Origin: Deinococcales bacterium | GTDB taxonomy: Bacteria; Deinococcota; Deinococci; Deinococcales; JAAFIG01 | Length of the DNA: 20,241 bases | Assembly (NCBI GenBank): GCA_043778225.1 | Contig: JAYWGM010000060.1 | Location: forward strand, 1-20,241 | Direction: 5' to 3' | Shown: positions 1 through 19,635 of the stretch, one piece after another | How the letters are laid out: each line of letters opens with the position of its first letter | Numbering within the stretch: position 1 is the first letter of the stretch | Translations under genes and position numbers: made by a program | The notes under the pieces: generated by a model | What the model saw: the letters and a program-made list of their open reading frames with translations, nothing else | What the model was told of the DNA's origin: nothing | Databases searched by the model: none

Positions 1-86
1 TCTACTGCACTACTCGCCTTTTGGTAGTGCTGTTGGAGTTCTTCGGCGGTGTGTTGTAGCTCGAGTTTTATTTTTGCTCTACCCAT
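1..86 (-). CDS. 5' part of a CDS running off the window; N-terminus resembles IS630-type winged helix-turn-helix (transposase OrfA-like) proteins
   Basis: Manual translation from ATG at 86 gives MGRAKIKLELQHTAEELQQHYQKASSAV(E/D), matching the recalled 'hs.eEL.qrYr.a...vEr' start of IS630-associated HTH proteins. TAAAAT lies 6 nt upstream. Not in the ORF track. Confidence 0.5.
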   Translation of the reverse strand, partial: MGRAKIKLELQHTAEELQQHYQKASSAV

Positions 87-119
87 TAAACTATTTTAAT
101 AGATTATCCGAGTTTCTTA

Positions 120-971: not shown

Positions 972-1089
972 GGCAACAGCTTACCCTGTAACGACTTTTC
1001 AAGAAATGCTGACAAGGCTTGAGGCGCTTGGTAATGAGAAGTTTCTTGGCTAACAGTCAACGAAACTTCTTTGGGTGTTAAAATTCGCC

Positions 1090-2097
1090 ATGACAATCAA
1101 TGTGGCAATTCTAGGAGCAGGCAATATCGCAGCGACCCATTACCGAGGTTATGAAAAAGCAGCTGCAAAACTGGTGGGGTTTGTTGAAGTCAATCCCGAA
1201 ATGCGTGCCAAGCGAGAACTCGAGTGGTCAGCCCCCGGTTTTGGCTCGTTAGCAGCGCTACTCGAGACTGTCAAACCCGAGGCGGTGTCGGTGTGTACCC
1301 CCAATGCTTTTCATTTGCCGCTGACGCTCGAGGCAATTAAAAACGGTATCCATGTGCTGTGCGAAAAACCATTGTCGCTGAGTCTAGCCGAATGCCAAAC
1401 CATGATTGATGCAGCCCAGCAGGCGGCAGTGGTACTGCAAACAGGGCATCATTTGCGCTCGAATTGGTATGTCCAAAAAGCCAAACAGATTATTGAGAGC
1501 GGTGAACTCGGTCGGGTCACGTTTGTGCGTTTGCGTCAATCGCACGATTGGGGAGGCTCGGGGCGTGTACCCGAAACCTTTAGCACTTATGCCAAGGCTG
1601 GCGGCGGAACACTTTTAGACAATGGCTGTCATCTGATGGATTTGGCACGCTACTTAGCTGGCGATGTGCAAAGTATCTATGCCCAAATTGCTACCTTGGC
1701 GTATCCTGTCGAAGTCGAAGACTTGGCTTTGGTACACCTCGAGTTTAGCAGTGGTGCGCTTGGTAGTGTCGAGAATTCTTGGTCAAGTGTTGGTTTTGAA
1801 GAGGGCTTTTGGATTTATGGTACGAAAGGCACACTCGAGTGCAATTTTGCAGGAGCGCAACCTCGCCAGTTACTGCACTATCACCGTGCCAGCCAACCTA
1901 GCGAATGGGGCGCACGCGACACCACAACCCATAAAGTCGGCAATGAAGGCGGGCATTTTGCCCAAGTGGCGGCTTTTTTGGAAAGCATTAAAAATAAAAC
2001 GCCAGCCATCTGCACAGGTGCAGATGGGCGCGAAAGTGTCCGCTTGGTTTTAGCGGCTTATCAGAGTGCCAAAGAAAAAAGGATGGTGGTGTTATAA
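1090..2097 (+). CDS. Gfo/Idh/MocA family oxidoreductase
   Basis: ILGAGNIA Rossmann motif, CTPNAFH, HVLCEKP and GGGTLLDNGCH. Start moved from GTG 1075 to ATG 1090 because TGt-TAAAAT (1079-1084) lies 5 nt upstream of it. Confidence 0.92.
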   Translation: MTINVAILGAGNIAATHYRGYEKAAAKLVGFVEVNPEMRAKRELEWSAPGFGSLAALLETVKPEAVSVCTPNAFHLPLTLEAIKNGIHVLCEKPLSLSLAECQTMIDAAQQAAVVLQTGHHLRSNWYVQKAKQIIESGELGRVTFVRLRQSHDWGGSGRVPETFSTYAKAGGGTLLDNGCHLMDLARYLAGDVQSIYAQIATLAYPVEVEDLALVHLEFSSGALGSVENSWSSVGFEEGFWIYGTKGTLECNFAGAQPRQLLHYHRASQPSEWGARDTTTHKVGNEGGHFAQVAAFLESIKNKTPAICTGADGRESVRLVLAAYQSAKEKRMVVL

Positions 2098-3074
2098 AAA
2101 TCCTGATTTTAGGCGGCACTGCCTTTCTTGGTGGGCATTTGGTCAAAGCAGCCTTAGAAAAAAACCACGAGCTGACCCTTTTTCACCGAGGCAATCGCAA
2201 CCCATTTCCAAAGCTCGAGAATATCCTTGGAAACCGCGAAACCGACCTTGGTATATTGGCTGGGCGCACTTGGGATGCCGTGATTGATACCAGTGCCTAT
2301 GTGCCAAGAATTGCAAAAATCAGCGCTCAAGCCTTGGGGGCAAGTGTTGGGCGCTATTGCTTTATCAGCACCATCAGCGTCTACCAAGACGTTACCAAAG
2401 CCCACGACGAAAACGCGCCAGTCGCCACCCTCGAGCAAGATACCGAAGAAGTCAATGGGGTCACTTATGGCGCATTAAAAGTCTTGTGCGAAAACGAAAT
2501 TACCCTCGAGTATGGCAATCGGGCTTTGCTGCTCCGTCCGGGCTTAATTGTTGGCGCACAAGACCCATCGGACAGATTTACTTATTGGGTAGACCGTGTG
2601 GCAAAAGGTGGAACGGTGCTTGCACCGGGTCATCCAAATACGGGGGTGCAATTTATAGACGCACTCTCGTTGGCACGGTTTACAATTCACGCCCTCGAGC
2701 AAAATTTAAGTGGCACATACAACCTCAATGGGCAAGCGACCTCAATGCAGCAAGTTCTCGAGACCATCGGGCGCGTGGTTAGTTCGGATGCAAAGTTTGT
2801 TTGGGCAAACCAAGCCTTTCTCGAGCAGCACAAGGTCAATCCATGGATGGGCGCGGACAGCTTACCGCTTTGGATACCAGATTTAGATGCGACCACCGAT
2901 GGCACAAATACTGCGGCAGCCCTAAAAGCTGGACTCGAGTTTCGCAGCCTTGAAGAGACTGTGCAAGAAGTTTTTGAATGGTCGGCGACTCGAGAAAACC
3001 ACACTTGGCGCAGTGGCATCAGTCAAGAACGCGAAGCAGAACTTTTGGCGTGGCTCGAGAACCCAAGGGTATAA
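2094..3074 (+). CDS. NAD-dependent epimerase / isoflavone-reductase-like extended SDR; probable ATA start
   Basis: The frame upstream of the called TTG (2139) reads (I)KILILGGTAFLGGHLV, the Rossmann motif. Also WDAVIDTSAY, FISTISVY, YGALK (YxxxK), RPGLIVG and LPLW. Confidence 0.88.
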   Translation: MKILILGGTAFLGGHLVKAALEKNHELTLFHRGNRNPFPKLENILGNRETDLGILAGRTWDAVIDTSAYVPRIAKISAQALGASVGRYCFISTISVYQDVTKAHDENAPVATLEQDTEEVNGVTYGALKVLCENEITLEYGNRALLLRPGLIVGAQDPSDRFTYWVDRVAKGGTVLAPGHPNTGVQFIDALSLARFTIHALEQNLSGTYNLNGQATSMQQVLETIGRVVSSDAKFVWANQAFLEQHKVNPWMGADSLPLWIPDLDATTDGTNTAAALKAGLEFRSLEETVQEVFEWSATRENHTWRSGISQEREAELLAWLENPRV

Positions 3075-3078
3075 CAAT

Positions 3079-3103
3079 AAAAAACGCAGCCCCTTTTGGC
3101 TGC
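3079..3103 (-). terminator. Intrinsic terminator downstream of the K+ channel gene
   Basis: Minus strand reads GCAGCC-AAAAGG-GGCTGC followed by GTTTTTT. Confidence 0.6.
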
Positions 3104-3135
3104 TGATAGGTAAGAGTGTATCACCATATTCGATA

Positions 3136-3180
3136 TTCTTGACCTTAAAGCAGCACCTAACGGGCTTAGGTCGCTTCGTC
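3136..3180 (-). repeat. Copy A of a ~45-nt intergenic structured repeat
   Basis: Minus-strand gacgaagcgacctaagcccgttaggtgctgctttaaggtcaagaa matches 20188-20231 (+) at 36 of 45 aligned columns. Confidence 0.7.
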
Positions 3181-3184
3181 AAGT

Positions 3185-4162
3185 TTATGCACTTGAGCCG
3201 TCCAGTGCGGCATTTTTGACTGGCTCGTATTCATGAAGTTTTCTGACATCTATGGCAGCCCCGCCGTATTTATCTTGAATGTACATCTCCGAAAACTTGG
3301 CATTCCAAACAATTTCTTCGGCTTTGTACGAACCCCTTGCGTGGACTTTTTGAAACAAGACATCATCTAAGCCATGAATCACCACCAATAACTCGGCTTG
3401 GCTTTGGTCAAGGTCGGCTTCGTTCATGCCCCACAACGGACTTTCTGGCGTAATCGGATGCACCAGCGTCCATGCCATACTAAAAAAAGCCACTTTGGCA
3501 CGCTCGAGACGCAAATTATAAAAACGCCGCATTCTGCGCCCAGCTACCATTTCAAACCTTGAAAAATTGACTTGGGCTTCGATGTCGATAATTTCGTTAC
3601 GATAACCGTTGGTAATCCGAAACATCAGCCCTAAACCGTCTTGAAATGGCGACACCAGCGCGTTTTTGCTCCACAAAATTCTCGAGACTGGCTTAGAAAA
3701 CCTCGAGAACATCACGCCAGTAATCAAAGCCGCAATCAGTAGACCCAAGAAAGCCTCGATGCTCGAGACCACATGAGCCGCTACGCTGTTTGGCGAGATA
3801 TGCCCATAGCCAATCGTGGACAGCGTTTCGACACTAAAAAAGAAGCCACGCCAAAAGGTGTCTTTGACTTCGTTGGGTGTACCGGCATAGAGCGCATCTG
3901 GACCGCATAGCAGATAAATAAAGGCAAAAACCAGATTGATTAAAATAAAGACAACCGTGACGAGCGTAAAAAACATTGTCCACGACATCGAAACCAGTGC
4001 ATAAAATGGGCTGAGGCTCGAGAACCACCCCAAGCCCACCCGACGGGTATTAAAACTGCCATCTTTGTTGAGAAAGCGGGTGGACTGTTCGGCTTGAACC
4101 CGACCGATGCCAAGGTCATCTGGAATTGGTAGCTGGATTGGCGCTGATTCGGTTGGCGACAT
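3185..4162 (-). CDS. Inward-rectifier potassium channel (KirBac family)
   Basis: FFFSVETLSTIGYG pore/selectivity filter, two TM helices and a cytoplasmic Kir domain (LMFR, WTLVHPITPESPL). Start taken at the second Met (MSPTES) because TATAAT sits 7 nt upstream. Confidence 0.93.
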   Translation of the reverse strand: MSPTESAPIQLPIPDDLGIGRVQAEQSTRFLNKDGSFNTRRVGLGWFSSLSPFYALVSMSWTMFFTLVTVVFILINLVFAFIYLLCGPDALYAGTPNEVKDTFWRGFFFSVETLSTIGYGHISPNSVAAHVVSSIEAFLGLLIAALITGVMFSRFSKPVSRILWSKNALVSPFQDGLGLMFRITNGYRNEIIDIEAQVNFSRFEMVAGRRMRRFYNLRLERAKVAFFSMAWTLVHPITPESPLWGMNEADLDQSQAELLVVIHGLDDVLFQKVHARGSYKAEEIVWNAKFSEMYIQDKYGGAAIDVRKLHEYEPVKNAALDGSSA

Positions 4163-4205
4163 AGGCAGCATTATAAAGAGTAAAAGTCATTTTTTTCTAA
4201 AAAAC

Positions 4206-4445
4206 TTATCGAACTATGGTTTGAAGGCTTCGTTTTTTTCGAGCAGGCTTTTTGAGTTTCATTTCTAATACCCTATCTAAGCTGTCAAATAGTGTCATCG
4301 CTTCATCTTGGTTTATACCTGTTCGCGCAGATATTTCAGAACCTAAAGCAAAAGCAGTTTCCAACAACAAACTTCGTATTTGCAATAGTTCATCTTGTTC
4401 AAAGACGACAACGATAATTTCACCAGATTTTGAAATTCTTTTCAT
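4206..4445 (-). CDS. Small hypothetical protein (79 aa), AT-rich
   Basis: ATG-started ORF filling the gap between two co-oriented genes; no recognisable domain. Confidence 0.6.
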   Translation of the reverse strand: MKRISKSGEIIVVVFEQDELLQIRSLLLETAFALGSEISARTGINQDEAMTLFDSLDRVLEMKLKKPARKKRSLQTIVR

Positions 4446-4464
4446 GGTGTAGGTAAGAATTAAA

Positions 4465-5559
4465 TTAGCGGCTCGGTTGCTCGAGTTGTGCCAGCACTGC
4501 CCCAGTTAAGCCATTGACCGCCACCACCCGTTGGTATTTTGCCCCGCCTGTCACGACGGTGCTGACAAATGGGCTGGTCAGGGCTTGGGTCACCAGTCTG
4601 TCGGGGGCTGGTTCGCTCAGGTTAAAGCGCAGGGTCAGGACACCGTTTTCGACTCGAGTTGAAGACAGGGCAACTCCGTACCCACCTGTTGGTTTTTGCC
4701 CTATAAAAAAGCTAATGGCACTGCTGCGTGTAAAGTCGAGGCTTGGGGCGCTGGGCAACGGAATTTGATTGCCATTGATGATTTGCCATGTCTGGGCAAA
4801 ACTCGAGTTGCTTGTGTCCCAACGCAATAAGGGTTGCGGGTTGTTGTAGGCTGCGTTCGAGCCATTTAGCAGCGAACGAACAGTCAGTGGTTCGGTGTTG
4901 GTAAAACCACCCAATAAATCTAGCGGTAAGCCGACTTGGACATACAGGGCGGTTAAATTTACACGGTCTGGGCGTGGCGTAAGATTGAGGTAAGCATCGG
5001 GGATGTTTGGATACTCGAGCAAGGCGACGGCAAGTGGCTGCTTAAATTTTTCTTGTAAATAACTTTGCAGTGCGTCAGATTCGGCGTTGTTCAGTTCGCC
5101 AACGCCGCGCAGACCCGCATTGCGTTCTTTTATCTCGAGTCGCAACTTAGAATCTTTGGAGAGTTCTTCGCGGCGACCGACATCAAACCATTTTTTACCG
5201 TCAAAGTAATACAGCGCTTGCACCGCATCTCGAGTTAAAACGCTCAGGTCAGCAGTCAATGGAATGGTTGCCACCGACAGCACTTCACGAATTGGCTTTG
5301 GGCGACTTTGTAAAGTTGCAGCACCATTAACGCTGAGTGAATTGGGAACTGCCAATGCGCCAATCAGGGCTGTGCCACTCAGGGTAATGGTGTTATTCTC
5401 GAGTTGTAGCGCCCGAGTTTGCCCCGCCTCGAGTTTGCCATAAAAAATCGTCTGGCGTTCTTGGATACCATACAAAACAATATCGGTGATGGTGTACTCC
5501 GAGGGCTGAAAAGCACAAGCCCCAAGTGCCAAAAGTAAAACGCCAAAAAGAATACGCAT
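4465..5559 (-). CDS. Lipoprotein with C-terminal PrcB (protease complex subunit) domain
   Basis: Signal peptide with lipobox LGAC; C-terminal GQKPTGGYGV...VTQALTSPF is typical of PrcB_C. Confidence 0.8.
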   Translation of the reverse strand: MRILFGVLLLALGACAFQPSEYTITDIVLYGIQERQTIFYGKLEAGQTRALQLENNTITLSGTALIGALAVPNSLSVNGAATLQSRPKPIREVLSVATIPLTADLSVLTRDAVQALYYFDGKKWFDVGRREELSKDSKLRLEIKERNAGLRGVGELNNAESDALQSYLQEKFKQPLAVALLEYPNIPDAYLNLTPRPDRVNLTALYVQVGLPLDLLGGFTNTEPLTVRSLLNGSNAAYNNPQPLLRWDTSNSSFAQTWQIINGNQIPLPSAPSLDFTRSSAISFFIGQKPTGGYGVALSSTRVENGVLTLRFNLSEPAPDRLVTQALTSPFVSTVVTGGAKYQRVVAVNGLTGAVLAQLEQPSR

Positions 5560-5668
5560 AAGGCTATCCTAAGGCTTGGTTGGGCTTTAAGTATGAACAA
5601 AAGCTCAAAATACCCTTAACGGTCTCGAGCAGGGAATCTAACTCATGAATTTGTATTATAATGAAACC

Positions 5669-5953
5669 ATGAAATCATCTGTAAAAACCATTGGTACAGG
5701 CGGGCAGATTTACTTAGGCAAAGAATTTGCTGGGCAACACGTCTTGGTGACACAAACCGAGACAGGTGTTTGGCAAATCAAAACCGCTGATGTGATTCCA
5801 CACAGTCAGCGGTTTTGGCATCAACCCGAAGTGGATAAACTGATGCAGCAGGCATTGGCTGAATCTGCTGGGCGGACGGCTCGAGCCAGCACAGAAGAAG
5901 AAATGGAAGAATTGTTCGCTCGTGCTTTGAAATATGCAGAAGAACGGACATGA
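5669..5953 (+). CDS. AbrB/MazE-like putative antitoxin
   Basis: VKTIGTGGQIYLGKEFAG swapped-hairpin-like N-terminus and acidic helical C-terminus. ATGA overlap with the next gene. Start at 5669 because TATAAT lies 6 nt upstream. Confidence 0.65.
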   Translation: MKSSVKTIGTGGQIYLGKEFAGQHVLVTQTETGVWQIKTADVIPHSQRFWHQPEVDKLMQQALAESAGRTARASTEEEMEELFARALKYAEERT

Positions 5954-6225
5954 TTGAACTGGATATGAACCAAGCCAGTTTCCAAACATCATTTTTCCAA
6001 CTCGAGAAAGCTGAGGTTATCAGTGTTACCAATGCTTGCAAAAAAATTCGTCAGCTAACATGGGAACAATTCTACCAACATTCGGGTTTTAACTGGGAAT
6101 GGATTTCTGGCAAAGAATACTATACTTTTCGTGTGTCTGATAAAATTCGCGTGGCTGCGCTGAGAAAAGGAAATTTGTTGGAGCTACAAAGAATTTTTAC
6201 TGACCATGACAGCGCCTATGCCTAA
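5950..6225 (+). CDS. RelE/ParE-like putative toxin
   Basis: 91 aa with YTFRVSDKIRV and C-terminal DHDSAY, a RelE-superfamily-like pattern; translationally coupled to the upstream small gene. Confidence 0.6.
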   Translation: MIELDMNQASFQTSFFQLEKAEVISVTNACKKIRQLTWEQFYQHSGFNWEWISGKEYYTFRVSDKIRVAALRKGNLLELQRIFTDHDSAYA

Positions 6226-6974
6226 AGTAAACCATAAACCATTCGAGCATTCCGACTGGTGATTTTTTCTATTTCTACAAGCTCGAGTTTGCGTACCATC
6301 GCCAGCGTCTCGAGGGTATGGTGCAGGTACTCTGGGCGGTTTGGTTTACCGCGAAACGGTATCGGCGATAAATAGGGCGCATCGGTCTCGATTAGCAGCC
6401 GATTTTCTGGAACAATAATAGCCGCCTCACGGATTTTCTGGGCGGTTTTATAGGTTAGGTTTCCAGCGAACGAAACATAAAATCCCAGTTCTAAACCCGT
6501 CTCGAGCAATTGGGTATCGCCAGCAAAACAATGCAGAATGCCTTGTGTCCAGCCAGCGTTTTGCAAAATTGCGGCGCAGTCGGCAAAAGCCAGTCGTGAA
6601 TTGTCTTTATCGCGGCAATGAATCACAATTGGCTTTTTAAGCCTTCTGGCTAAATCGAGTTGCCACTCGAGACTTCTGACTTGATTTTGCGGTGTGGCAG
6701 CATCCCAATAATAATCCATGCCACTTTCGCCAATACCGACCACTTTTTGATGCAGGGCTAATTGCTCGAGAACTTCTATCACTTGGCTTGAGACCAGGTT
6801 GGCATCGGTTGGATGCAGACCGACGGTGGCATAGACATTGGGTAGCCGCTCGGCAAGCGCCAGACAACTTTTGGCTCGTTCTGGGTTAAAGCCAATGGCA
6901 ACCAAATACTCGAGTTGGGCGGCGCTCGAGTCTGGGTCTGGCACAGCATCCAAGTGGCAGTGGGTATCAATCAT
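6222..6974 (-). CDS. tatD: TatD family deoxyribonuclease
   Basis: MIDTHCHLD, GLHP, IGESGMDYYW, IHCRD, GILHCF and LIETDAPYL motifs. Confidence 0.95.
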   Translation of the reverse strand: MIDTHCHLDAVPDPDSSAAQLEYLVAIGFNPERAKSCLALAERLPNVYATVGLHPTDANLVSSQVIEVLEQLALHQKVVGIGESGMDYYWDAATPQNQVRSLEWQLDLARRLKKPIVIHCRDKDNSRLAFADCAAILQNAGWTQGILHCFAGDTQLLETGLELGFYVSFAGNLTYKTAQKIREAAIIVPENRLLIETDAPYLSPIPFRGKPNRPEYLHHTLETLAMVRKLELVEIEKITSRNARMVYGLL

Positions 6975-6992
6975 GAATACACGCTCCGCGTC

Positions 6993-7988
6993 TCATGGGC
7001 GCACGGTGATGTCTTGAATATGCTGCCAGTCCGACCAGCCTTTGATGGGTAAAGTGACTTGGACTTGCCACGTTACTTTGTTGTCGGTGGCGCAAAAAGT
7101 CGTGGCTGCACCTTCGGGAATTGGTAGCTCGAGCGCAAACTCGAGTTTCTCGCCGCTTCGCAAGAAGCGCTTTTCAGAGACCAAAACTGGGTGCTGAAAG
7201 ATAGGGACAACATGAGTGCTGCGATTTGTGCCACTGCCAGTCGAATAGGTTTCGCTCTGCACCAGTTTGACTTCGATTTTCTCGAGTTCGAGGTCGGCTT
7301 TAACAATGGTTTCAAAGCGAACCTGAATACTTTGACTTGGCTGGATTTCTAAAGGTTCAATCTCGAGCTTGACCGCCCCGAGTTTGGCTTGGGCAAGGCT
7401 GTTGCGTAAAAGTGTATAGCCGATAAAAACAATCACACCGCCAAAAATCAAACCGACTGGAATAGCAATAAAAATCGGCACTTGCGACAAAATAAAAAAT
7501 AATCCAATCAAAAAAACAAAACAAAAACCAAGACCAACCTGCATTCCAATTTTAGAGCCAACCCCAACGATTTGCGCTCGAACCGTGGGCGCAAGATATG
7601 CTGGTCCAAAGTCCACACTTGCCATGCTTGGCAATGCGCCAAAAATAAAATCGGTTTCGGCTTTGGTTTTACCAAACATTCCGCCAGACTCGGCACGAAC
7701 ATACCAATCCAGATTAGTGTTTGTGCCTCGGTAAGTAAACGGACCATCGGGCATTTCAAAGTTAAATGGCACTTCGGTGATTCCAGCATTCCAGTTTTCG
7801 GCAATTGTGGTTTCGGCTCGAGAGCCATGGTCGCCACTGCCACGCCCATGCGCCCGCCACTCACGAATCAACTGGATTTTGCCGCGTCCACCGTCTGGGT
7901 CGTGAATGCTGACCACACCAAAAACCATATCGCCAGCCAAGTAGACCCCATCAGGGCGGTCAAGTCGAATCTCGAGCTTAAAACTCAT
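6993..7988 (-). CDS. Hypothetical membrane protein with two arrestin/SpoOM-like beta-sandwich segments flanking two TM helices
   Basis: The N-terminal 'LEIRLDRPDGVYLAGDMVFG...PFTYRG...DWYVRA' pattern recurs in the C-terminal half; a central hydrophobic hairpin separates them. Shares an ATGA overlap with the upstream gene. Confidence 0.6.
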   Translation of the reverse strand: MSFKLEIRLDRPDGVYLAGDMVFGVVSIHDPDGGRGKIQLIREWRAHGRGSGDHGSRAETTIAENWNAGITEVPFNFEMPDGPFTYRGTNTNLDWYVRAESGGMFGKTKAETDFIFGALPSMASVDFGPAYLAPTVRAQIVGVGSKIGMQVGLGFCFVFLIGLFFILSQVPIFIAIPVGLIFGGVIVFIGYTLLRNSLAQAKLGAVKLEIEPLEIQPSQSIQVRFETIVKADLELEKIEVKLVQSETYSTGSGTNRSTHVVPIFQHPVLVSEKRFLRSGEKLEFALELPIPEGAATTFCATDNKVTWQVQVTLPIKGWSDWQHIQDITVRP

Positions 7989-8581
7989 GGGTTGCTCCTT
8001 TGCATTGCTTGGTAGTCATCATACAACTCCGATTCAATGCCCCGCAGGTCGTCCCTATATATTTCTAGAAGTTGCTCGAGTCGGGCGATTGCAGGGCGTG
8101 GAATTTCGCCCTCCGAGCGCCGCGCCCACGCAAGCCGTTTTTCGATGATCGCTTGGAGTTTCTCGAGGCTGAGACCAGTTAGGGTTATGAGTTGTACCCG
8201 AAAACCGGCTCGCTCGAGTTCTTGGCGATGATTTTGGTGCGAAGCAATCACCCACGTTTGGGCGCGTTGCCAAATAACAGGGCGTATCAGACGTGGCAAG
8301 CGCTGGGCTTCGTCGAGGAAGATGGTTTTGGCTCGAGGGATGGTTGGCTGCTTGCCAACCTCAGGCAGGTGAATATAGGGCGCATCTGAATACTTTTGGT
8401 GAATCGCCAAAAGATGGGTGGTTTTGCCGCGTCCTTTTTGTCCTAAAAATAAAATTGCGGTTTTAGGCTCGAGCAAAAACTCGGGTATATCCACTGCCAA
8501 GTCTGCCCGCTCCTCGAGTCTGCTTTCAGAAAACGGATTCCAACGCAAATGAAGGCTTAAAAAAGCTCGAGACGCAAGCAC
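7985..8581 (-). CDS. Small P-loop NTPase (AAA+-like)
   Basis: Walker A GQKGRGKT, Walker B IFLDE and N-terminal WNPF. GTG start with TACACT 6 nt upstream. Confidence 0.75.
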   Translation of the reverse strand: MLASRAFLSLHLRWNPFSESRLEERADLAVDIPEFLLEPKTAILFLGQKGRGKTTHLLAIHQKYSDAPYIHLPEVGKQPTIPRAKTIFLDEAQRLPRLIRPVIWQRAQTWVIASHQNHRQELERAGFRVQLITLTGLSLEKLQAIIEKRLAWARRSEGEIPRPAIARLEQLLEIYRDDLRGIESELYDDYQAMQRSNP

Positions 8582-8587
8582 CTATTC

Positions 8588-8597
8588 AGTGTAGACT
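8588..8597. promoter_or_regulatory. Overlapping divergent -10 elements (bidirectional leaderless promoter)
   Basis: AGTGTAGACT gives TACACT on minus (6 nt before GTG 8581) and TAGACT on plus (5 nt before ATG 8603). Confidence 0.65.
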
Positions 8598-8602
8598 AAG
8601 AC

Positions 8603-9499
8603 ATGACCATCGGCGCAACGGGGACTGGTACAGAAAGCATTCACCAAGGCAGTCAAGACCTTGATTTACTCGAGACCGCAGCTTTGGTGCGCTTGTTGGC
8701 TGGCGACCAAGAAAATGCCGTTAAAGCTGTGCTGGCGGTGGCTGATTCAATTGCCAAAGCCGTAGATTTAGCCGCCGAGCGCCTCAGCCTTGGTGGGCGC
8801 TTACTCTACGCTGGGGCTGGCACAAGCGGGCGTTTGGCATACTTAGACTCGAGCGAACTGACTCCTACTTTTGGCTGGTCAAAAGACAGAGCCGTGGTCG
8901 CCATGGCTGGCGGGAAAAATGCGGTTTTTCAGGCAGCTGAAGGCGCAGAAGACGATTTTGAAATGGGCAGAAACGACCTGCTGGCGCTAAAACCCACAAG
9001 CCATGATGTCCTGATTGGTATTGCTGCCAGTGGTGGTACGCCCTATGTTCTTGGGGCGCTCGAGCTTGCCAAAGAACATGGAGCATTGCGAATCGGCTTA
9101 TCGAACAATCCTAATACAAAAATTCTCGAGGTTGCCGATGTCTCGATTTTACTCGATACGGGTGCAGAGGTAATTTCGGGCAGCACCCGCTTAAAAGCTG
9201 GCACAGCCCAAAAAATTGCTTTGAACACGCTCTCGAGCGGCATTATGGTGCGCTTAAATAAGGTCTACGGCAACTTGATGGTGGACTTACAAGCCACCAA
9301 CATTAAACTGGTGGCTCGAGCTATTCGTTTAACACGGCTGGCGACCAATGCCCCCGACGACATGGCAGAAGCCGCCCTGAGCCAAGTGGGTTGGAATGTC
9401 AAAACCGCAATTGTGATGCTCGAGAAGAACTTATCTGCCGAAAGTGCCACGGCATTGCTTGAGCAATGTGCTGGTAGTGTGCGTCGGGCTTTGCAGTGA
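8603..9499 (+). CDS. murQ: N-acetylmuramic acid 6-phosphate etherase
   Basis: GAGTSGRL..LD.SE..PTF, EGAED, GIAASGGTPYV, GSTRLKAGTAQK and GNLMVD motifs. Confidence 0.96.
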   Translation: MTIGATGTGTESIHQGSQDLDLLETAALVRLLAGDQENAVKAVLAVADSIAKAVDLAAERLSLGGRLLYAGAGTSGRLAYLDSSELTPTFGWSKDRAVVAMAGGKNAVFQAAEGAEDDFEMGRNDLLALKPTSHDVLIGIAASGGTPYVLGALELAKEHGALRIGLSNNPNTKILEVADVSILLDTGAEVISGSTRLKAGTAQKIALNTLSSGIMVRLNKVYGNLMVDLQATNIKLVARAIRLTRLATNAPDDMAEAALSQVGWNVKTAIVMLEKNLSAESATALLEQCAGSVRRALQ

Positions 9500-9519
9500 G
9501 TAAGTGCTAGACTTTTTGT

Positions 9520-10239
9520 ATGTACCATAAAGACCTGAGGGCGCTCGATGCGCTCGAGCTATTGCCGCGTGTGATTCACAATGCCGATGAGGTCAATCCG
9601 GGTTTCTCGGCACTTGGTGCGGAGCTTGCGGGTCCACTCTGGGCAGAAGCGCCTGCCAATTGGCTGGGGCGAGTCACGGCTCGAGCCGAAGATGCACTTG
9701 GCAGTGTTTACCTTGTGCCGCCCTATAAAATGAAACGCCTGATGCCACTGATGCGCCAAATGCAGGAGTATGGCGTGATTGCGGCGGGGATTGACTTTGC
9801 GCTGCTCGAGATTGCCACCGAAACCCGCCCGCGCAGTGCCGCCGAACTGAGCGAACTCAAAGACGCGGCGGGTGTGCCTTTTGTGGTGGCTGGAATCCTC
9901 GACCCACGCGATGCCGAATTGGCTGCCGAAGCTGGCGCAGATGCAATTATTGCTTGCTCGAGCCTGAGCAGCATTATTGGCGGTCCGAGCTTGCCAAGCC
10001 TTGTGGCAGACATCCGCGATGCAGTTGGCGATACGCTGCTTTTTGCTCGAGGTGGCTTACGCAGCGGTTCGGATGTGCTGCGCTATATTGCGCTGGGTGC
10101 AGACTCGGTGGTCGTGCCGGGCAACTTAAACCCGCACCGAATACTCGAGGAATTTGTACAGGGAATGCGCTGGAGTGGCTGCTCGAGCCTAGCCGAAATC
10201 AACTACGACCTGATTTTTGAACCGATGTTTACCGATTAG
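9520..10239 (+). CDS. Alpha-hydroxy-acid oxidase / FMN-dependent dehydrogenase-like protein, catalytically degenerate
   Basis: LLPRV, PFVVAGILDPRDAELAAEAGADAII and GGLRSGSDVLRYIALGAD follow the family pattern, but the KG, SNHGGRQ, DGG and GRP motifs are altered. Confidence 0.7.
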   Translation: MYHKDLRALDALELLPRVIHNADEVNPGFSALGAELAGPLWAEAPANWLGRVTARAEDALGSVYLVPPYKMKRLMPLMRQMQEYGVIAAGIDFALLEIATETRPRSAAELSELKDAAGVPFVVAGILDPRDAELAAEAGADAIIACSSLSSIIGGPSLPSLVADIRDAVGDTLLFARGGLRSGSDVLRYIALGADSVVVPGNLNPHRILEEFVQGMRWSGCSSLAEINYDLIFEPMFTD

Positions 10240-10300
10240 GATTTATATCACGTACCGCGTTTGGTACAAGTAAAAATGGTGGCTCAGGTTTGGAGAACGC

Positions 10301-11068
10301 ATGATGCAACTCGAAACAGCCGTTCAAATAGCTGGGCATAGTCTGGTGGTATTGCAAAACACGACTCGAGACTCGAGTTTTCAGGAAAAAGCTGGAATCT
10401 GGTGGTATCAAACTCAAACCAACCTGAACGCCATGTTGACCAACACCGATTCTATGCCACTCGAAGTCAGCGCGGCGGCTCGAGCGTGGGGTCTGAAAAA
10501 ACAGTTGGTGATTCATCAGTTCTTAACTCCAGATTCGGATCAAATTGGCTTAATAGCCCGTTTTGCTGCGGCTGGTTTTGTTTTGACCAATCGTCATTAC
10601 CTCATGAACCAAGACTTAAAACTACAACTCGAGTTGCCTGTACCTTGGAGGGTTTTTTGCGCCGAAAATCAAAAACAAATTAAGCAAATCTCGAGCGCCG
10701 CCAAAGAAATTTTGTTGAATCTGGCTCAGTTGCCACCGTCGCCTTTGGGGGTGCGCTTGTACGCGGCTCAAGACTCGAGTCAAATTGTTGCTTGGGCGCG
10801 AGTTGCCCAATTACAGCCCGATACTGCTTGGTTGGACGATTTGTTTACGCGGGTGGCTTGGCGTAAACGCGGTGTGATGGCAAGTATTTTACAACGCATT
10901 GACCAAGATGCAATTACTTTTGGGGCGCACCAAATGCTGTTGTTTTCGGGGCAGCATAATCTCGAGTATCATCTTGGGCATGGGTATGAAAAAGTGGCAA
11001 TAAAATTGCGATTTGCTGCCCCACCAACTTGGTTTGAACGAATCAAAAATAAGTTCAAAGCAAGTTAA
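10301..11068 (+). CDS. GNAT family N-acetyltransferase
   Basis: C-terminal AWLDDLFTRVAWRKRGVMASIL (motif A) and LGHGYE; GGAG RBS upstream. Confidence 0.75.
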   Translation: MMQLETAVQIAGHSLVVLQNTTRDSSFQEKAGIWWYQTQTNLNAMLTNTDSMPLEVSAAARAWGLKKQLVIHQFLTPDSDQIGLIARFAAAGFVLTNRHYLMNQDLKLQLELPVPWRVFCAENQKQIKQISSAAKEILLNLAQLPPSPLGVRLYAAQDSSQIVAWARVAQLQPDTAWLDDLFTRVAWRKRGVMASILQRIDQDAITFGAHQMLLFSGQHNLEYHLGHGYEKVAIKLRFAAPPTWFERIKNKFKAS

Positions 11069-11484
11069 GCCTCGAGTTGTGCCTTAGCAGCTGTTTTCAT
11101 CGTGTCCGCTACCAGTGTGTACACCACACCCCAAGCCTCACGGACTTCGGTGGTGAATGCCAGTCCTAAACCCTTTTCTAAAGTCCAGATAAGCGCAGTC
11201 CCAACAGTTTCATAGTGTGCTTCGGTCACACCGTACCCCGCGTGACGTTGCCCAAGTAATTTTAGAGCAGGTAAGACCACATCGGGTTTGGTTAAATTGG
11301 TCACGGCAACACCCAGCATGGTCATGAGTTTCTTGCCTTGTTCGGTCATGTCGCCATGAAACATGGCTTTGAGACTCGGGTCAAGCTCGAATAAGCGTGT
11401 GTAAAATAAGTCGGCTGCCACAACCGCAATTGGTTCTACCTGAGCAAACGACGTTTGTACCAGTTCAATTTGATGTGCATTCAT
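11065..11484 (-). CDS. Single-domain globin (flavohaemoglobin/Vgb-like), 139 aa
   Basis: LFYTRLFELDP (B10 Tyr), EQGKKL (E7 Gln) and LGQRHAGYGV (proximal His). Start MNAHQ at 11484 with an AGAGGT RBS. Confidence 0.93.
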   Translation of the reverse strand: MNAHQIELVQTSFAQVEPIAVVAADLFYTRLFELDPSLKAMFHGDMTEQGKKLMTMLGVAVTNLTKPDVVLPALKLLGQRHAGYGVTEAHYETVGTALIWTLEKGLGLAFTTEVREAWGVVYTLVADTMKTAAKAQLEA

Positions 11485-11522
11485 AAAATTACCTCTTAAA
11501 ATCTCGAGCCGTGAATCGTGGG

Positions 11523-12887
11523 TTATGGTTGAGCCACAACTAAACTCGGTTGGTGGTTTTTCTCGTGACTCGAGCCTCGCCAAACGCGCCAAACGATACT
11601 GGGTACGAATAAAGAACTTGGTGGTTTGACCATGTTGCCCACGCTATGAAATGCTACGGTCAAGATTGGGTCATGTGCTGCTACCGTCAGTAATTTTGCA
11701 ATGTAGGCATTGATCAAATTAACTTCTGGTCCTCGTTTACCAATGGTTTCGGCAAAAGCAAAATCTGCTCCTGCTGCCAGCATCCAAGCGGTATCTACAA
11801 CCCCAGCCGCTTGCTTAAAAAATCGTTTGCCAATGCCTTTGATTCCAAGGTTCAGAGCGGTACTCAGGGCTTGGGCTTCGAGACTGGCAACACTCATGCC
11901 TTGTCCAAAAATTGGATTAAAACTACACATCGCGTCGCCCAATACCAAGAAACCTTCTGGAAAGGATTTTAATTTTTCGTAATGCCGTCGTAAACTTGCA
12001 GGGAATTTGTACGGCACAATCTCCGAGAGTGGCTCGGCGTTTTTAAGTAAATTGTACAATTCAGGGGTTGGTAAACTGCGAGTAAACTCGAGAAAACCAG
12101 CTTGGTCAGTTGGCGGATGATCGCCGTGCATTCCAATCAGGGTCACTGCCCATTGGTCATTTTCCTGAGCTAAAATTACTGCACCACGCTTTTGATTTGG
12201 GGCTTTTGGTGCAATAACCATCAGGGCTTTACCGTTCAAATCAGAGCTTGAACGCCGAAAAGTACGGGTTGAATACGCCATATTGACTTTGACTTCGCTT
12301 ACTTGAGGCGCAACAAAACCCATCCGCTCGAGCCAAACTGGGCTTTGCGAACCACGACCACTGGCATCCACCACCAAATCCGCTTTGAATTGCTGTTTGA
12401 TGCTGTCCACTTCGTACTGCACACCAATAACTTGATTGGCTTTGATTAATAAACCCTTCACAGCCACATCAGTCAAAGCCACCACATTCTTTAAGCTCAG
12501 AACACGATTACGAACCACCGCCTCGAGATTCGGACGACTGATTGCCACACCATGCAAATCTGAAGTTGCTGCAGCTAAAAAAGCCCCATTTTGAAACCAA
12601 GCACCGTCCTTGGTGACATCCAACAAAAGCGCCCCAGCTTTGACCAATTCGGACTGCAAATCTGGGAATAACCTCAGCAAAACACGGTAGCCAGCACTGA
12701 GTAACCCATGCGGATGCTGACCTTGAGGCACGCCCTTACGCGGCAACGTATTTTCTGAGAAAACATCACGCTCGAGTAGTGTGACCCGCTCGAAACGCTC
12801 CGAAAGCACCCGAGCCGCCAACAAACCGCTCATGCTTGCCCCAATCACAATCGCGTGCTTAGCGATTTGGATATTATTTTGATTCAT
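11523..12887 (-). CDS. FAD-dependent monooxygenase/oxidoreductase
   Basis: AIVIGASMSGL, RKGVPQGQH.H, LVVDASGRGS and LGDAMCSFNPIFGQGMS. Start MNQNN at 12887 with an AGAGGTGG RBS. Confidence 0.9.
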   Translation of the reverse strand: MNQNNIQIAKHAIVIGASMSGLLAARVLSERFERVTLLERDVFSENTLPRKGVPQGQHPHGLLSAGYRVLLRLFPDLQSELVKAGALLLDVTKDGAWFQNGAFLAAATSDLHGVAISRPNLEAVVRNRVLSLKNVVALTDVAVKGLLIKANQVIGVQYEVDSIKQQFKADLVVDASGRGSQSPVWLERMGFVAPQVSEVKVNMAYSTRTFRRSSSDLNGKALMVIAPKAPNQKRGAVILAQENDQWAVTLIGMHGDHPPTDQAGFLEFTRSLPTPELYNLLKNAEPLSEIVPYKFPASLRRHYEKLKSFPEGFLVLGDAMCSFNPIFGQGMSVASLEAQALSTALNLGIKGIGKRFFKQAAGVVDTAWMLAAGADFAFAETIGKRGPEVNLINAYIAKLLTVAAHDPILTVAFHSVGNMVKPPSSLFVPSIVWRVWRGSSHEKNHQPSLVVAQP

Positions 12888-12961
12888 AAAACCACCTCTT
12901 GTATCTCGAGGACGAAAAAACATGGAACTCGAAACACCTATTCATTTCTTTGACTTAACTA

Positions 12962-13168
12962 TTACGTTCCCGACTTCATAAAAACCAAAAAAGGTAAGCC
13001 AAGTAACACCACCAGTAGCAACAACAAACCAATCATTAGTACGCCAATCGGCACAATTTGCTCGAGATTCAACTGATACCCATAGCGGACAATCAGTCCA
13101 AGCACGATAAACACAACAACAAGATAAAGAAGGTACAGCACTGCAAAAATTATTATTTTAAGTCCCAT
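12962..13168 (-). CDS. Small two-TM membrane protein (68 aa)
   Basis: Two long hydrophobic segments, AAGGGA upstream of the ATG, and co-orientation with its neighbours. Confidence 0.6.
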   Translation of the reverse strand: MGLKIIIFAVLYLLYLVVVFIVLGLIVRYGYQLNLEQIVPIGVLMIGLLLLLVVLLGLPFLVFMKSGT

Positions 13169-13187
13169 GTCATCCCTTCTAATTCAC

Positions 13188-13310
13188 TTAAAAACTACCC
13201 ATGCCAGCCACTAAAACCGCGTAATTCCCTTGGGTCTCGAGGCTTGGCTTGACGTATGGTTTTTTGACGACGTTCACTTCGGTGCTTGGTGCTTCTTTAA
13301 CTTGATTCAT
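13188..13310 (-). CDS. 40-aa peptide with RiPP-leader-like KKPYxxPxL motif
   Basis: Manual translation: MNQVKEAPSTEVNVVKKPYVKPSLETQGNYAVLVAGMGSF*. Strong RBS AGAGGAG 4 nt before the ATG. Below the ORF-track cut-off. Confidence 0.75.
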   Translation of the reverse strand: MNQVKEAPSTEVNVVKKPYVKPSLETQGNYAVLVAGMGSF

Positions 13311-13373
13311 AATGCTCCTCTTGAAACAACCCCAGAACTTGATGGCTCGAGGGGGAAAATTGCGAATACTCAG

Positions 13374-15851
13374 TTATTTTTTGAGTAAGACACTGATTGA
13401 ATTTGAACTGCTGTTACCTGTGATAAAATCAAGTTTGCCATCGGCGTTAACATCGCCTGTGCTGACAACCCGAGCATTTTCACTGGGGCTATAATCGGTC
13501 TTGGCAGCAAAACTACCCGTACCCGTACCGAGCAGTACACTGGCGCTACCAGTAACCGAGCTAAAGTTGGCAGTAATTACATCGAGTTTGTTATCGCCGT
13601 TGAAATCGCCAATTTTAATGTCTATTGGGTTTGTACCAGCTATAAAATCGGTTTTTGGATTGAGACTGCCATAACCCGTGCCTAACAGTAAACTGATGGT
13701 ACTTGAACCTTGATTGACCACGGCTAAATCGAGTTTGCCATCGGTGTTAAAATCTCCAGCCGCTAAGCCTTTGGGACTCGAGCCAACAGGGAAATCGGTT
13801 TTTGTATCGAACGTTCCAATGCCAGTACCAAGCAATAAACTGATGGTATCTGCACTGCTATTGGCTACGGCAACATCGAGTTTTCCATCGCCGTTAAAAT
13901 CGCCCAGTGTGACATCTCGAGGGCTTGTACCAACCAGATAATCGGTTTTGGCTGTAAATACACCAAAGGCATTGCCGAGCAGCAGACTGATGGTATTTGC
14001 ACTATTATTAACGACCACCAAGTCAAGCGCACCATCGCCGTTCAAATCGCCATTGCTGATGGCGACAGCCCCAGCACCTACCGCATAATCGGTTTTGTTT
14101 GGAAATAAACCTAAACCATTTCCGAGCAGCAGACTGATGGTATTTGGATTCTGATTGACCACGGCAATATCAAGGTTGCCGTCGGCATTAAAATCCCCTG
14201 TGGTTAATGCACCCGGGTTTGCCCCTGTACTCGAGTTGAGGGGCGCTGAAAATCCTCCCCCGCCAGTGTTGAGTAAGGCATTGACTTGATTGCCTCCAGG
14301 ATTTGTGACCACCACATCCAAATGACCATCGCTGTTAAAATCGCCTGTGGTTAAACCAATTGGCGTACCAACCGTGGCTGTACTGACTTTAGAATTAAAA
14401 CCAGTCACAGCTTCTGGGCTACTGGCGATCCGAAAGCGGTAGACAATTGGTTTTAGGGCAGCATTATCCAAAGTTCGAGTTAAAAATTGAGTCAGGCTGA
14501 CTTCAACTTCTTCACCGCGCCTAAAATTGGTCGTAGGCGTATACACAAGACCATCACCAGGAAACGGGGTACTGTAATCGCCGTTGCTACTCGAGCGCCG
14601 CCCTGTTTCAGCACTGTTAATCACAAAGTTAGAACTTGTCGCATCAAACATTAGATCGCAAGTATTGGCTTGTACCACGGTATTGGCAGCTACAAACATA
14701 CTGTTTGGAATCGGTAAAACACTGGTCACACCGGGTTGATTACTAAAAAAATCTTGAGCCAATGTCGGTGTGACGGTGGCAGTTTCGACTCGGCAGAGCA
14801 GATCGCGTTGCACACCTGTACCAGTTGGGTTTGGGTAGCCAAAAATTCCACTGCTCGGCAAGGTACGGATATACCGTTTTCCACCAATTCCGGGCAATAC
14901 ATTTAAGTTCAGCACTTGCTCGAGTGAAGTTTGAGCGGCAATACTTTGTTCTTCTTGACTTTGCGAAGTGGCAGATGCAATGTCGTCGGCAACCACGAAC
15001 ACAAAACTAAAGGTAAATGGATTTTGACTGCGAATTGGTTTACGTGGCAACTTAAAAGCAAAGGTGACACGTCCCTTGAAGCAACTCGAGTTGTTGGTCA
15101 CAAAGGTGTAACCGTTTGGTGGGCTGGTCAGGGTACTCGAGCAATTGGCACTGGTTGGTGTCATACCAATGGTTCGTGCAGTGCCAGAAGTTGGTACACT
15201 CCGAGCCGTGTACCCATACTCGAGGACTTGCAGTGCTGGGTATGTGGTATTCAAAGCTACTTGCACCACATCGGTTTCGGCTTCGCTGTAAAGCTGCATA
15301 TCCGCCGCTTCTGGTTCGATTTCAACACCGTTACTGATACTCGAGCGCATACCATGCGTGGGTTTGATGGCACGGTAGGTCAATTCGCCCGTGGGTACAG
15401 TATCGGTGGCTGGGATAACCACATCTGCGCCATCTTTTAAGCTCGAGAACATTGTGCCAAGTTGAGTATTTAAGCTGGTAGCCACAAAGTTGAGGTTCTT
15501 AAAGCTGGTGGCACTAAAATTTGCAATATCAAAAGTGGCTCGGACATAGCGGGTTTTTGTGCCAAAGGTTTCGTTGGCATCTATAAACCCAACACTGTTG
15601 CGTTTAATGGCAATTTGCGAGGTGGTGTTGCCATTGGCAGTTAAGCTCTGGGTTTGCAACTTGCTCGAGACAAACGGCTTAAAGTTGCTGCGGCTGGTTG
15701 GATTTAATTCATCGCTAAAATCCAGTGTCACCTCGAGTAAACCAAGGGTTTTAACAGGGCTTGGAATGGAAGGTGGTTTTTCTATTCTGGTACTACCACA
15801 ACCAATCGTGGCAACAAGTAGTAAGGTAAATCCGAGGAACTGACGCATCAT
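13374..15851 (-). CDS. Lipoprotein with unknown N-terminal domain, Ig-like (Big_5-like) domain and seven FG-GAP/VCBS repeats
   Basis: Lipobox TIGC and AAGGAG RBS; seven GD(F/L/V)NxD(G/N)xLD motifs at ~49-aa period. Confidence 0.9.
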   Translation of the reverse strand: MMRQFLGFTLLLVATIGCGSTRIEKPPSIPSPVKTLGLLEVTLDFSDELNPTSRSNFKPFVSSKLQTQSLTANGNTTSQIAIKRNSVGFIDANETFGTKTRYVRATFDIANFSATSFKNLNFVATSLNTQLGTMFSSLKDGADVVIPATDTVPTGELTYRAIKPTHGMRSSISNGVEIEPEAADMQLYSEAETDVVQVALNTTYPALQVLEYGYTARSVPTSGTARTIGMTPTSANCSSTLTSPPNGYTFVTNNSSCFKGRVTFAFKLPRKPIRSQNPFTFSFVFVVADDIASATSQSQEEQSIAAQTSLEQVLNLNVLPGIGGKRYIRTLPSSGIFGYPNPTGTGVQRDLLCRVETATVTPTLAQDFFSNQPGVTSVLPIPNSMFVAANTVVQANTCDLMFDATSSNFVINSAETGRRSSSNGDYSTPFPGDGLVYTPTTNFRRGEEVEVSLTQFLTRTLDNAALKPIVYRFRIASSPEAVTGFNSKVSTATVGTPIGLTTGDFNSDGHLDVVVTNPGGNQVNALLNTGGGGFSAPLNSSTGANPGALTTGDFNADGNLDIAVVNQNPNTISLLLGNGLGLFPNKTDYAVGAGAVAISNGDLNGDGALDLVVVNNSANTISLLLGNAFGVFTAKTDYLVGTSPRDVTLGDFNGDGKLDVAVANSSADTISLLLGTGIGTFDTKTDFPVGSSPKGLAAGDFNTDGKLDLAVVNQGSSTISLLLGTGYGSLNPKTDFIAGTNPIDIKIGDFNGDNKLDVITANFSSVTGSASVLLGTGTGSFAAKTDYSPSENARVVSTGDVNADGKLDFITGNSSSNSISVLLKK
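13377..14400 (-). repeat. Intragenic ~147-bp tandem repeats encoding FG-GAP blades
   Basis: aatcggtt blocks at 13644, 13791, 13938 and 14085 (147-bp period); identical 25-mers at 13975-13999 and 14122-14146. Confidence 0.85.
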
Positions 15852-15878
15852 TTGTTCTCCTTTGAACGAACTGTTCGT

Positions 15879-15914
15879 AGCTTAGAATTGCTGCCGTAGC
15901 CTGAGCGTAGCCTG
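15879..15914 (-). promoter_or_regulatory. SARP/AfsR-type activator site and -10 element of the lipoprotein operon
   Basis: Minus strand reads CAGGCTACG-CT-CAGGCTACG-(10 nt)-TAAGCT: a perfect 9-mer direct repeat at 11-bp period. Confidence 0.7.
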
Positions 15915-15976
15915 TGTCGTTTGATTCGTCAGGCTCGAGAAAAGCAGCAAAACACAAACTGTGTCATGATGGTCTG

Positions 15977-19456: not shown

Positions 19457-19478
19457 GTACAGTAACCCGCAACTCGAG
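19424..19478 (+). repeat. Tandem duplication delimited by three CTCGAG sites
   Basis: acagtaacccgcaactcgag is present at 19434-19453 and 19459-19478. Confidence 0.9.
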
Positions 19479-19635
19479 AATCCGTGCTTCCTCTATCTAA
19501 AGTCGTAGTCGTGCCGTTCACATTTTTCACGGCTACCTCACGCGGCTGGTTTCTCTCATGATACCTTGACTCACGTTAAGCCACCCTCGGGCAGGCGATT
19601 ACAGCCACCCTCAAATACTCGAGGGAAATAAAAGG

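Follow-up and report, generated by a model that had tools for sequence, protein, structure and literature searches.

We examined a 20,241-base stretch of DNA from a Deinococcales bacterium (contig JAYWGM010000060.1 of assembly GCA_043778225.1; the whole stretch is hereafter called the window) that is crowded with a single palindrome, CTCGAG. The window carries 132 copies, one per ~153 bases, across all of its genes and spacers; dinucleotide-preserving shuffles yield 2.62 copies on average and 8 at most, and none of 100 shuffles reaches 132. A first-pass annotation of the window had proposed that a drive toward this word overwrites protein sequence at normally conserved positions, citing one motif in MurQ and two in the gene that follows it. 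We found that the pressure toward CTCGAG roughly doubles the Leu-Glu content of the proteome, yet lacks the strength to make replacements more frequent at conserved columns. The genes and sites from which the proposal arose are as follows (lengths in amino acids, aa).

8603..9499, + strand: murQ (N-acetylmuramic acid 6-phosphate etherase), 298 aa, 7 CTCGAG sites
8848..8853, + strand: CTCGAG in frame 2, read as GAC TCG AGC (8846-8854), the D-S-S in LDSSE of MurQ
9520..10239, + strand: gene for a 239-aa divergent, shortened relative of FMN-dependent alpha-hydroxy-acid dehydrogenases, 7 CTCGAG sites
9957..9962, + strand: CTCGAG in frame 2, read as TGC TCG AGC (9955-9963), C-S-S, aligned to S-N-H of true FMN dehydrogenases
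10046..10051, + strand: CTCGAG in frame 1, read as GCT CGA GGT (10045-10053), A-R-G, aligned to the Asp of DGG

Abundance and setting of CTCGAG

Throughout the 4.03-Mb assembly (G000), CTCGAG is the commonest hexamer: its 24,877 copies (6.2 per kb, or one per ~160 bases) compare with 524 expected from dinucleotide composition, a 47-fold excess, and each contig longer than 5 kb carries 4.0-10.6 per kb. The enrichment is shared by the family, f1, all 18 of whose other genomes hold 4.3-6.8 copies per kb, against 0.03-2.9 in all 12 genomes from four sister families of the same order. One of these sister families, f3 (G020, G024 and G028), strongly avoids the word, with 128-457 copies in 4.2-4.8 Mb at ~70% G+C, the opposite of the enrichment in f1.

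The word behaves as a feature of DNA rather than of protein. Crude longest-frame gene calls, comprising 3,531 open reading frames (ORFs), cover 90.1% of G000 bases; they contain 22,402 of the 24,877 sites, leaving 2,475 in the remaining 9.9% of bases, so that on these crude calls the density is equal inside and out. Coding sites occupy all three frames, with 13,221 in frame 0 (Leu-Glu), 4,514 in frame 1 (x-Arg-x) and 4,667 in frame 2 (x-Ser-Ser/Arg). CTC GAG writes 69% of the Leu-Glu pairs in G000, whereas outside sites CTC makes up just 9.3% of Leu codons and GAG 23.6% of Glu codons. Present in three reading frames and in non-coding DNA, enriched genome-wide and shared by a clade, CTCGAG has the profile of a highly iterated palindrome.

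Gaps between sites are near geometric (coefficient of variation 1.00) with depletion at very short gaps only, which rules out regular spacing. Nor is the TCGA core the real target, as TCGA outside CTCGAG occurs at expectation (11,565 vs 11,901). Words one base removed from CTCGAG are found at 1.4-1.7x for outer-base and transition variants and at 0.37-0.53x for inner transversions, a pattern that resembles a mutational halo and leaves a repair drive neither supported nor opposed.

Where a Leu-Glu pair is shared with another genus, the presence of the site there is independent of the site in G000 (38/46 vs 11/12 for G011 and 37/51 vs 9/12 for G009, both small samples), and dependence on the G000 site is seen within the genus only. 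Position-specific conservation of sites between genera was therefore rejected, there being none beyond the equilibrium frequency in these small samples; such independence fits continual regeneration better than the conservation of particular sites.

Several further observations concern the words around the site. Directly adjacent sites are never seen (0 of 24,770 gaps equal 6, though 123 equal 7), and CTCGAGCTCGAG would generate GAGCTC, itself nearly missing from G000 (24 copies). The 8-mer CCTCGAGG, with 243 copies, is 5-9 times rarer than the site with other flanking pairs (1,117-2,203). Many other palindromes are nearly missing too: GGCC has 131 copies where 17,745 are expected, GGCGCC 3, GACGTC 1, and GATC stands at 0.2x. 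With at least 18 ORFs for DNA methyltransferases, belonging to three Pfam classes, in the same genome, this depletion amounts to a heavy restriction-modification load beside one hyper-abundant word.

Leu-Glu in the proteome

Leu-Glu heads the 400 dipeptides of the G000 proteome, occurring 19,108 times where 8,208 would be expected (2.33x). Ser-Ser stands at 1.58x; there is no rise in total Glu, and x-Glu pairs apart from Leu-Glu, Met-Glu and Asn-Glu among them, are depleted. For comparison we sampled 400 kb of a single genome per sister family, four in all, defining orthologues as reciprocal best tblastn hits (141-202 genes per outgroup). In the aligned columns of these orthologues, the observed/expected ratio of Leu-Glu was 2.09-2.39 in G000 and 1.09-1.39 in the outgroup families, and the G000/outgroup ratio of Leu-Glu ranked first among dipeptides against three outgroups and second against one. 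Pairs present only in G000 exceeded pairs present only in the outgroup in every comparison (718/388, 626/281, 717/185 and 753/461), as did genes with more Leu-Glu gains than losses over genes with the reverse (125 v 33, 105 v 23, 131 v 11 and 125 v 45). The other two frames left weaker marks: xS[SR], from frame 2, stood at 1.27-1.36 in G000 and 0.98-1.08 in outgroups, and [APST]R[AVEGD], from frame 1, at 1.19-1.31 and 0.80-1.07.

The replacements depend on the neighbouring residue. Change of a residue X to Glu was favoured after a conserved Leu relative to other conserved residues, with odds ratios (OR) of 2.8-6.1 for 10 of 10 residues (p 5e-8 to 4e-36), and change to Leu was favoured before a conserved Glu (OR 1.6-4.7, 8 of 8 residues tested); Glu itself was retained in 64.6% of cases after Leu and 51.7% elsewhere. 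In the control direction, with X in G000 and Glu in the outgroup, OR was 0.67-1.36 and none was significant, indicating that the context effect belongs to the G000 lineage. These results support the conclusion that the pull of CTCGAG fixes amino-acid replacements and has roughly doubled Leu-Glu in the proteome. Measured against the ~10,200 pairs that an outgroup-like ratio would give, the 19,108 observed correspond to an estimated ~9,000 rewritten Leu-Glu positions per genome, or ~0.7% of residues.

Conserved positions and the three proposed cases

Nucleotide alignment of the window within the genus was unusable for base-level gain and loss (64-83% identity, broken synteny), and codon alignments of seven genes were used instead. 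For six conserved proteins, RpoC, RpoB, IleS, UvrA, SecA and MurQ, aligned across 8-11 outgroup and 12-17 family genomes, the 107 CTCGAG sites divided as follows.

No amino-acid difference from the outgroup majority: 33 sites
Differences confined to variable columns: 42 sites
Difference at columns conserved in at least 75% of outgroups: 11 sites
Difference at outgroup-invariant columns: 4 sites
Not alignable: 17 sites

Counting codons that differ from the outgroup majority, inside and outside sites, gave:

Invariant columns: 4/71 in-site, 138/2,493 out-of-site
Columns conserved in at least 75% of outgroups: 12/39 in-site, 322/904 out-of-site
Variable columns: 66/107 in-site, 1,336/2,098 out-of-site

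Once columns are stratified by outgroup conservation in this way, in-site and out-of-site replacement rates are equal. What differs is where sites lie: 49% of in-site codons in the six proteins fall at variable columns, compared with 38% of the remaining codons (p = 7e-4), and in the 106 genes sampled in at least two outgroup families the outgroups agree at both codons for 62 of 350 frame-0 sites but for 9,130 of 30,376 other dipeptide positions. A disproportionate share of lineage-specific substitutions inside CTCGAG sites, as the first-pass annotation led one to expect, was likewise not seen on the genus stem: where the outgroups and the remaining four genera share a conserved column, 3 of 84 substitutions were in-site, as against 149 of 4,176 unchanged columns. 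The general inference of that annotation, that the drive toward CTCGAG fixes non-synonymous changes, is thus supported by the dipeptide ratios and context tests above, while its headline, the overwriting of normally conserved positions as a rule, is not, and two of its three examples fall.

The example that survives in part is MurQ. The murQ product matches NCBIfam TIGR00274 over its full length and above the curated cut-off (307.3 bits vs 302), retains the Glu of LDxxE, and aligns over residues 10-297 with PDB 4s12 (E = 1.4e-72), its LDSSE falling on the LDASE found at this place in solved MurQ structures; the Ala->Ser change adjoins the retained Glu. Ser-Ser is present in all seven aligned genomes of genus g1 (G000 included) and in G009, and six of these eight have the site (five of g1, plus G009). 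Ala occupies the place, after Leu/Gln-Asp, in 8 of 8 outgroups and in 9 of the 16 other aligned family genomes (LDAA or LDAS). Both states occur within one genus, g3, where G009 (L044) reads GAC TCG AGC, LDSS with the site, and G013 (L043) reads GAT GCC TCA, LDAS; this difference means parallel gain, reversal or recombination.

Outside the enriched family the position is less strict than it had seemed. We collected 80 MurQ loci, 77 of them readable, from species genomes with 0-2.7 CTCGAG per kb; Ala was found in 42, Ser in 29 and Gly in 6, proportions that are biased because the sample was seeded with Ser-bearing proteins, so that it is the occurrence of Ser that counts. The Ser loci, mostly from Burkholderiales, read LDSVE or LDSAE with the codon AGC or AGT. 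Judged from these alignments, the MurQ change is a real lineage-specific replacement that coincides with CTCGAG at a position that is not strictly conserved, and plausibly a motif-linked conservative change where Ser is tolerated. The claimed encoding of LDSSE by GAC TCG AGC stands, and the claimed conservation of the position stands only in part. As a separate matter, a set of metagenome MurQ proteins with LDSVE/LDSAE is 57-63% identical to G000 MurQ, and its closest genome matches are in Burkholderiales; Janthinobacterium, Massilia, Duganella and Rubrivivax (L320-L358) show 55-64% identity to that set, not to the window protein. These matches hint that this murQ clade has passed laterally from one phylum to another.

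The two remaining examples lie in the 239-aa protein, and for both the proposed encoding was confirmed: TGC TCG AGC gives C-S-S at the place of S-N-H, and GCT CGA GGT puts Arg on the Asp of DGG. Its likeness to the enzyme family, though, is distant. The protein matches Pfam PF01070 (FMN_dh) over profile positions 206-301 of 350 only, scores 47.8 bits with its best NCBIfam enzyme model against a cut-off of 376, and has neither the catalytic His nor the DGG Asp. In the HMMER alignment with L-lactate oxidase, 'iiacs.s' lies on 'iwvsnhg' (C on S, S on N and a gap on His) and 'fargg' on 'fdsg', Arg falling on Asp. True oxidases have S-N-H-G-G and D-G-G where this protein has A-C-S-S and A-R-G-G, and on these grounds it is not a true FMN dehydrogenase.

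Its own relatives give a different standard of conservation. Three full-length orthologues from non-enriched genomes (36-37% identity) have TSG, HAG and DGL for CSS and A-G-G for A-R-G; since these orthologues also have neither the His nor the Asp, both residues were lost before, or independently of, the enrichment. Among 21 closer homologues, A-C-S-[S/R/K/G] is the commonest reading (14/21), and Arg in [A/V]-R-G-G is found in 19 (one has Gln, one Lys). Some of these homologues contain 0-1 Leu-Glu pairs where 2.4-3.0 are expected and so probably come from non-enriched genomes, the Leu-Glu count being a proxy only. Within the enriched family the site at 9957 is present in 12 of 18 aligned genomes (G000 included), spanning four genera. 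The place of 10046 holds Arg or Lys in all 18 and the site in 8, the basic residue persisting through changes of codon (Arg as CGA, CGC or AGG; Lys as AAA or AAG).

The present Cys-Ser and Arg of the 239-aa protein are under selection of their own. The palindrome merely exploits the consensus C-S-S and Arg through synonymous codons, with one Gly->Ser change possibly also involved. Overwriting of conserved residues is accordingly not what these two sites record, and the label 'normally conserved' fits real FMN-dependent dehydrogenases and, in part, MurQ, but not the protein's own family.

A counterexample offered by the first-pass annotation, in which the protein motif withstands the word, proved exact in coordinates and frame:

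13374..15851, - strand: FG-GAP repeat protein, 825 aa, whose repeats keep Leu-Asp
13581, 13728 and 13875: plus-strand ATCGAG, in-frame AAA CTC GAT (K-L-D) on the minus strand, one base short of CTCGAG

The seven repeats follow D-x-N-x-D-G-x-L-D, with Leu-Asp written TTGGAT, CTTGAT (twice), CTTGAC and CTCGAT (three times), and here constraint wins over the word. A 'half-site' signal in the use of CTC before Asp was rejected: CTC accounts for 23% of the Leu codons that precede Asp but for 25-27% of those that precede Asn and Lys, so the one-base-short detail carries little weight beyond the Asp being kept.

Source of the pressure and its precedents

We favour, with a probability of roughly 80%, a genome-wide, DNA-level pressure toward CTCGAG that acts on the whole family and that genes accommodate chiefly through codon choice, with some amino-acid replacement where constraint is weak. 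The data show existing Leu-Glu pairs written CTC GAG, and replacements creating Leu-Glu in frame 0, x-Arg-x in frame 1 or x-Ser-Ser/Arg in frame 2; the pressure, indifferent to position, keeps most Leu-Glu pairs as CTC GAG and pulls neighbouring residues toward Leu-Glu wherever the cost is low. Because CTC GAG shows a ~100-fold odds excess among Leu-Glu codon pairs relative to out-of-site codon use, we estimate the strength of the pressure at a few units of Ne*s (effective population size times selection coefficient). That would be enough against near-neutral constraint and no more, which fits the unchanged rates at conserved columns. Candidate sources are selection on motif number and a molecular drive; the latter could work through biased repair or gene conversion, or through favoured uptake and recombination of DNA that carries the motif. 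That the pressure is a true molecular drive, rather than selection on proteins, and has rewritten ~9,000 Leu-Glu positions per genome across this Deinococcales family is a proposition to which we give even odds.

Several results weigh against the favoured explanation or limit it. In four cases a site does fall on a column that is invariant among the outgroups (MurQ A->S, IleS I->L, RpoB I->L and RpoB L->A), and the invariant-column sample is small: the estimated 95% interval for 4/71, ~1.6-14%, is compatible with a two-fold excess. At columns on which the outgroups agree, 165 of 575 in-site codons are derived against 3,738 of 15,046 others (OR 1.22, p = 0.04), an excess carried by Glu (31% v 19%) and Ser (63% v 44%), so that some effect at moderately conserved columns is real. 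Gene conservation and site density are unlinked across 576 genes (Spearman rho = -0.06, p = 0.18), with 18.7, 20.2 and 18.9 sites per 1,000 codons by conservation tercile; this fits poorly with a simple picture in which constraint limits sites at the level of genes. The proteome comparison itself uses crude ORF calls and 400-kb outgroup samples, in which some pairs may be paralogues, and its pooled per-opportunity tests recount G000 positions in the 106 of 576 genes present in at least two samples.

Three other explanations bear on the same data. In its strong form, the overwriting proposal has the drive overriding purifying selection at normally conserved, even catalytic, residues, and in its favour are the lineage-specific, site-encoded Ala->Ser beside the Glu of LDxSE in MurQ and the 4 of 107 sites on invariant columns of the six proteins. 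Yet replacement is equal inside and outside sites both at invariant columns (4/71 vs 138/2,493) and on the genus stem (3/84 vs 149/4,176), 29 of 77 MurQ loci from non-enriched genomes have Ser, and the Asp of the FG-GAP repeats is retained. The 239-aa protein tells against it as well, given non-enriched orthologues that have neither His nor Asp and homologues in which Cys-Ser (14/21) and Arg (19/21) are the commonest readings. This form is largely refuted, and we regard it as very unlikely.

Were Leu-Glu instead selected for some property of proteins, such as helix content or cold adaptation, CTCGAG would be a by-product of codon preference. The enrichment of Leu-Glu at the amino-acid level is in keeping with this, but sites are equally dense outside ORFs, 41% of coding sites fall in frames 1 and 2, and both CTC and GAG are minority codons away from the sites. 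Nor does total Glu rise, and x-Glu pairs apart from Leu-Glu are depleted; we find a protein-level cause highly implausible. At the opposite extreme, codon choice alone would accommodate the palindrome and leave proteins unaffected, as it does at the 33 of 107 sites in the six conserved proteins that show no amino-acid difference from the outgroup majority. Such a purely synonymous account is already refuted by the Leu-Glu ratio of 2.1-2.4 against 1.1-1.4 in the same aligned columns and by context-specific replacement (OR 2.8-6.1) with a null reverse-direction control, and we give it practically no weight.

The DNA-level pressure that we favour has relatives among known systems. Very-short-patch repair in E. 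coli, which acts at the methylated word CCWGG, can raise the frequency of that word by converting near-matches. No Vsr homologue was found in the 89%-complete G000 genome, and the one-off neighbours of CTCGAG are not depleted (1.4-1.7x for outer-base and transition variants). Uptake words, another class, are asymmetric, 9-12 bp long and present at ~1 per kb, unlike CTCGAG, a 6-bp palindrome at ~6 per kb. By its sequence pattern, CTCGAG nonetheless appears to have its closest precedent for a proteome effect in these words. Uptake signal sequences (USS) and DNA uptake sequences (DUS) co-evolve with the proteomes of Haemophilus, Actinobacillus and Neisseria (Findlay & Redfield 2009, PMC2817400); according to the parts of that study considered here, they approximately double the peptides they encode and prefer poorly conserved amino acids, motif residues being otherwise as conserved as the rest. 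CTCGAG resembles them, as far as these parts go, in doubling its encoded peptide, in preferring poorly conserved residues and in the otherwise equal conservation of in-site residues, and differs in having no preference for poorly conserved genes (rho = -0.06).

HIP1 (GCGATCGC) and the alternate highly iterated palindromes of cyanobacteria (Xu et al. 2018, PMC5861425; Elhai 2015, PMC4390886; PMC13756078) offer the second comparison, again drawn from portions of these papers. Like HIP1, CTCGAG is enriched tens- to hundreds-fold, is found throughout a whole clade in non-coding DNA as well as in all three frames, and spreads by substitution; unlike it, CTCGAG belongs to a different phylum, is a different word of different length and is ~six-fold denser. 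Selection on an amino-acid motif was tested and rejected for HIP1, and the passages covered (PMC5861425, PMC4390886) report no proteome shift. HIP1 is paired with cognate orphan methyltransferases in the model set out in the portion of Elhai 2015 (PMC4390886) covered here. Here, for none of the 18 G000 methyltransferase ORFs (PF00145, PF01555 and PF02384) do all four of the other sampled genera, represented by incomplete metagenome-assembled genomes, have a full-length orthologue with at least 50% identity, so that no methyltransferase of these three classes was found common to all five genera. To the HIP1 comparison also belongs the finding, from a small sample, of no between-genus conservation of CTCGAG sites beyond equilibrium frequency. 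Searches combining CTCGAG with highly iterated palindrome, and searches on over-represented palindrome, XhoI and Deinococcota, turned up nothing on hyper-abundant CTCGAG among the papers listed. The novelty lies in testing how the word affects proteins; the kind of phenomenon is already known.

The family and its sisters provide a lineage-specific control in which a short DNA word biases the amino-acid use of a whole bacterial family. With one dipeptide doubled and the bias halted at truly constrained positions, they set a quantitative bound on such drives. For annotation, Leu-Glu, x-Arg-x and x-Ser-Ser in CTCGAG-rich genomes need not be functional, and apparently lost catalytic residues should be judged against the protein's own family, not a distant enzyme family. 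If the pressure is indeed a molecular drive, no denser example of a proteome reshaped by a DNA word would be known, and it would serve as a natural genome-wide probe of change-tolerant protein positions, with a measurable strength of a few Ne*s.

Two observations on the window stand apart from the palindrome. Compared with G003, G006 and G007, which are labelled as the same genus, the genes of positions 1-20000 are just 69-83% identical as DNA and are dispersed over many contigs, with poor synteny. Positions 3136-3179 hold a ~40-bp hairpin-forming repeat (-13.8 kcal/mol) with 20 further short matches in G000, among them head-to-tail copies at contig C51:61141-61307, and with many 86-93% matches in genomes of the same family, where in G009 they often lie at contig ends.

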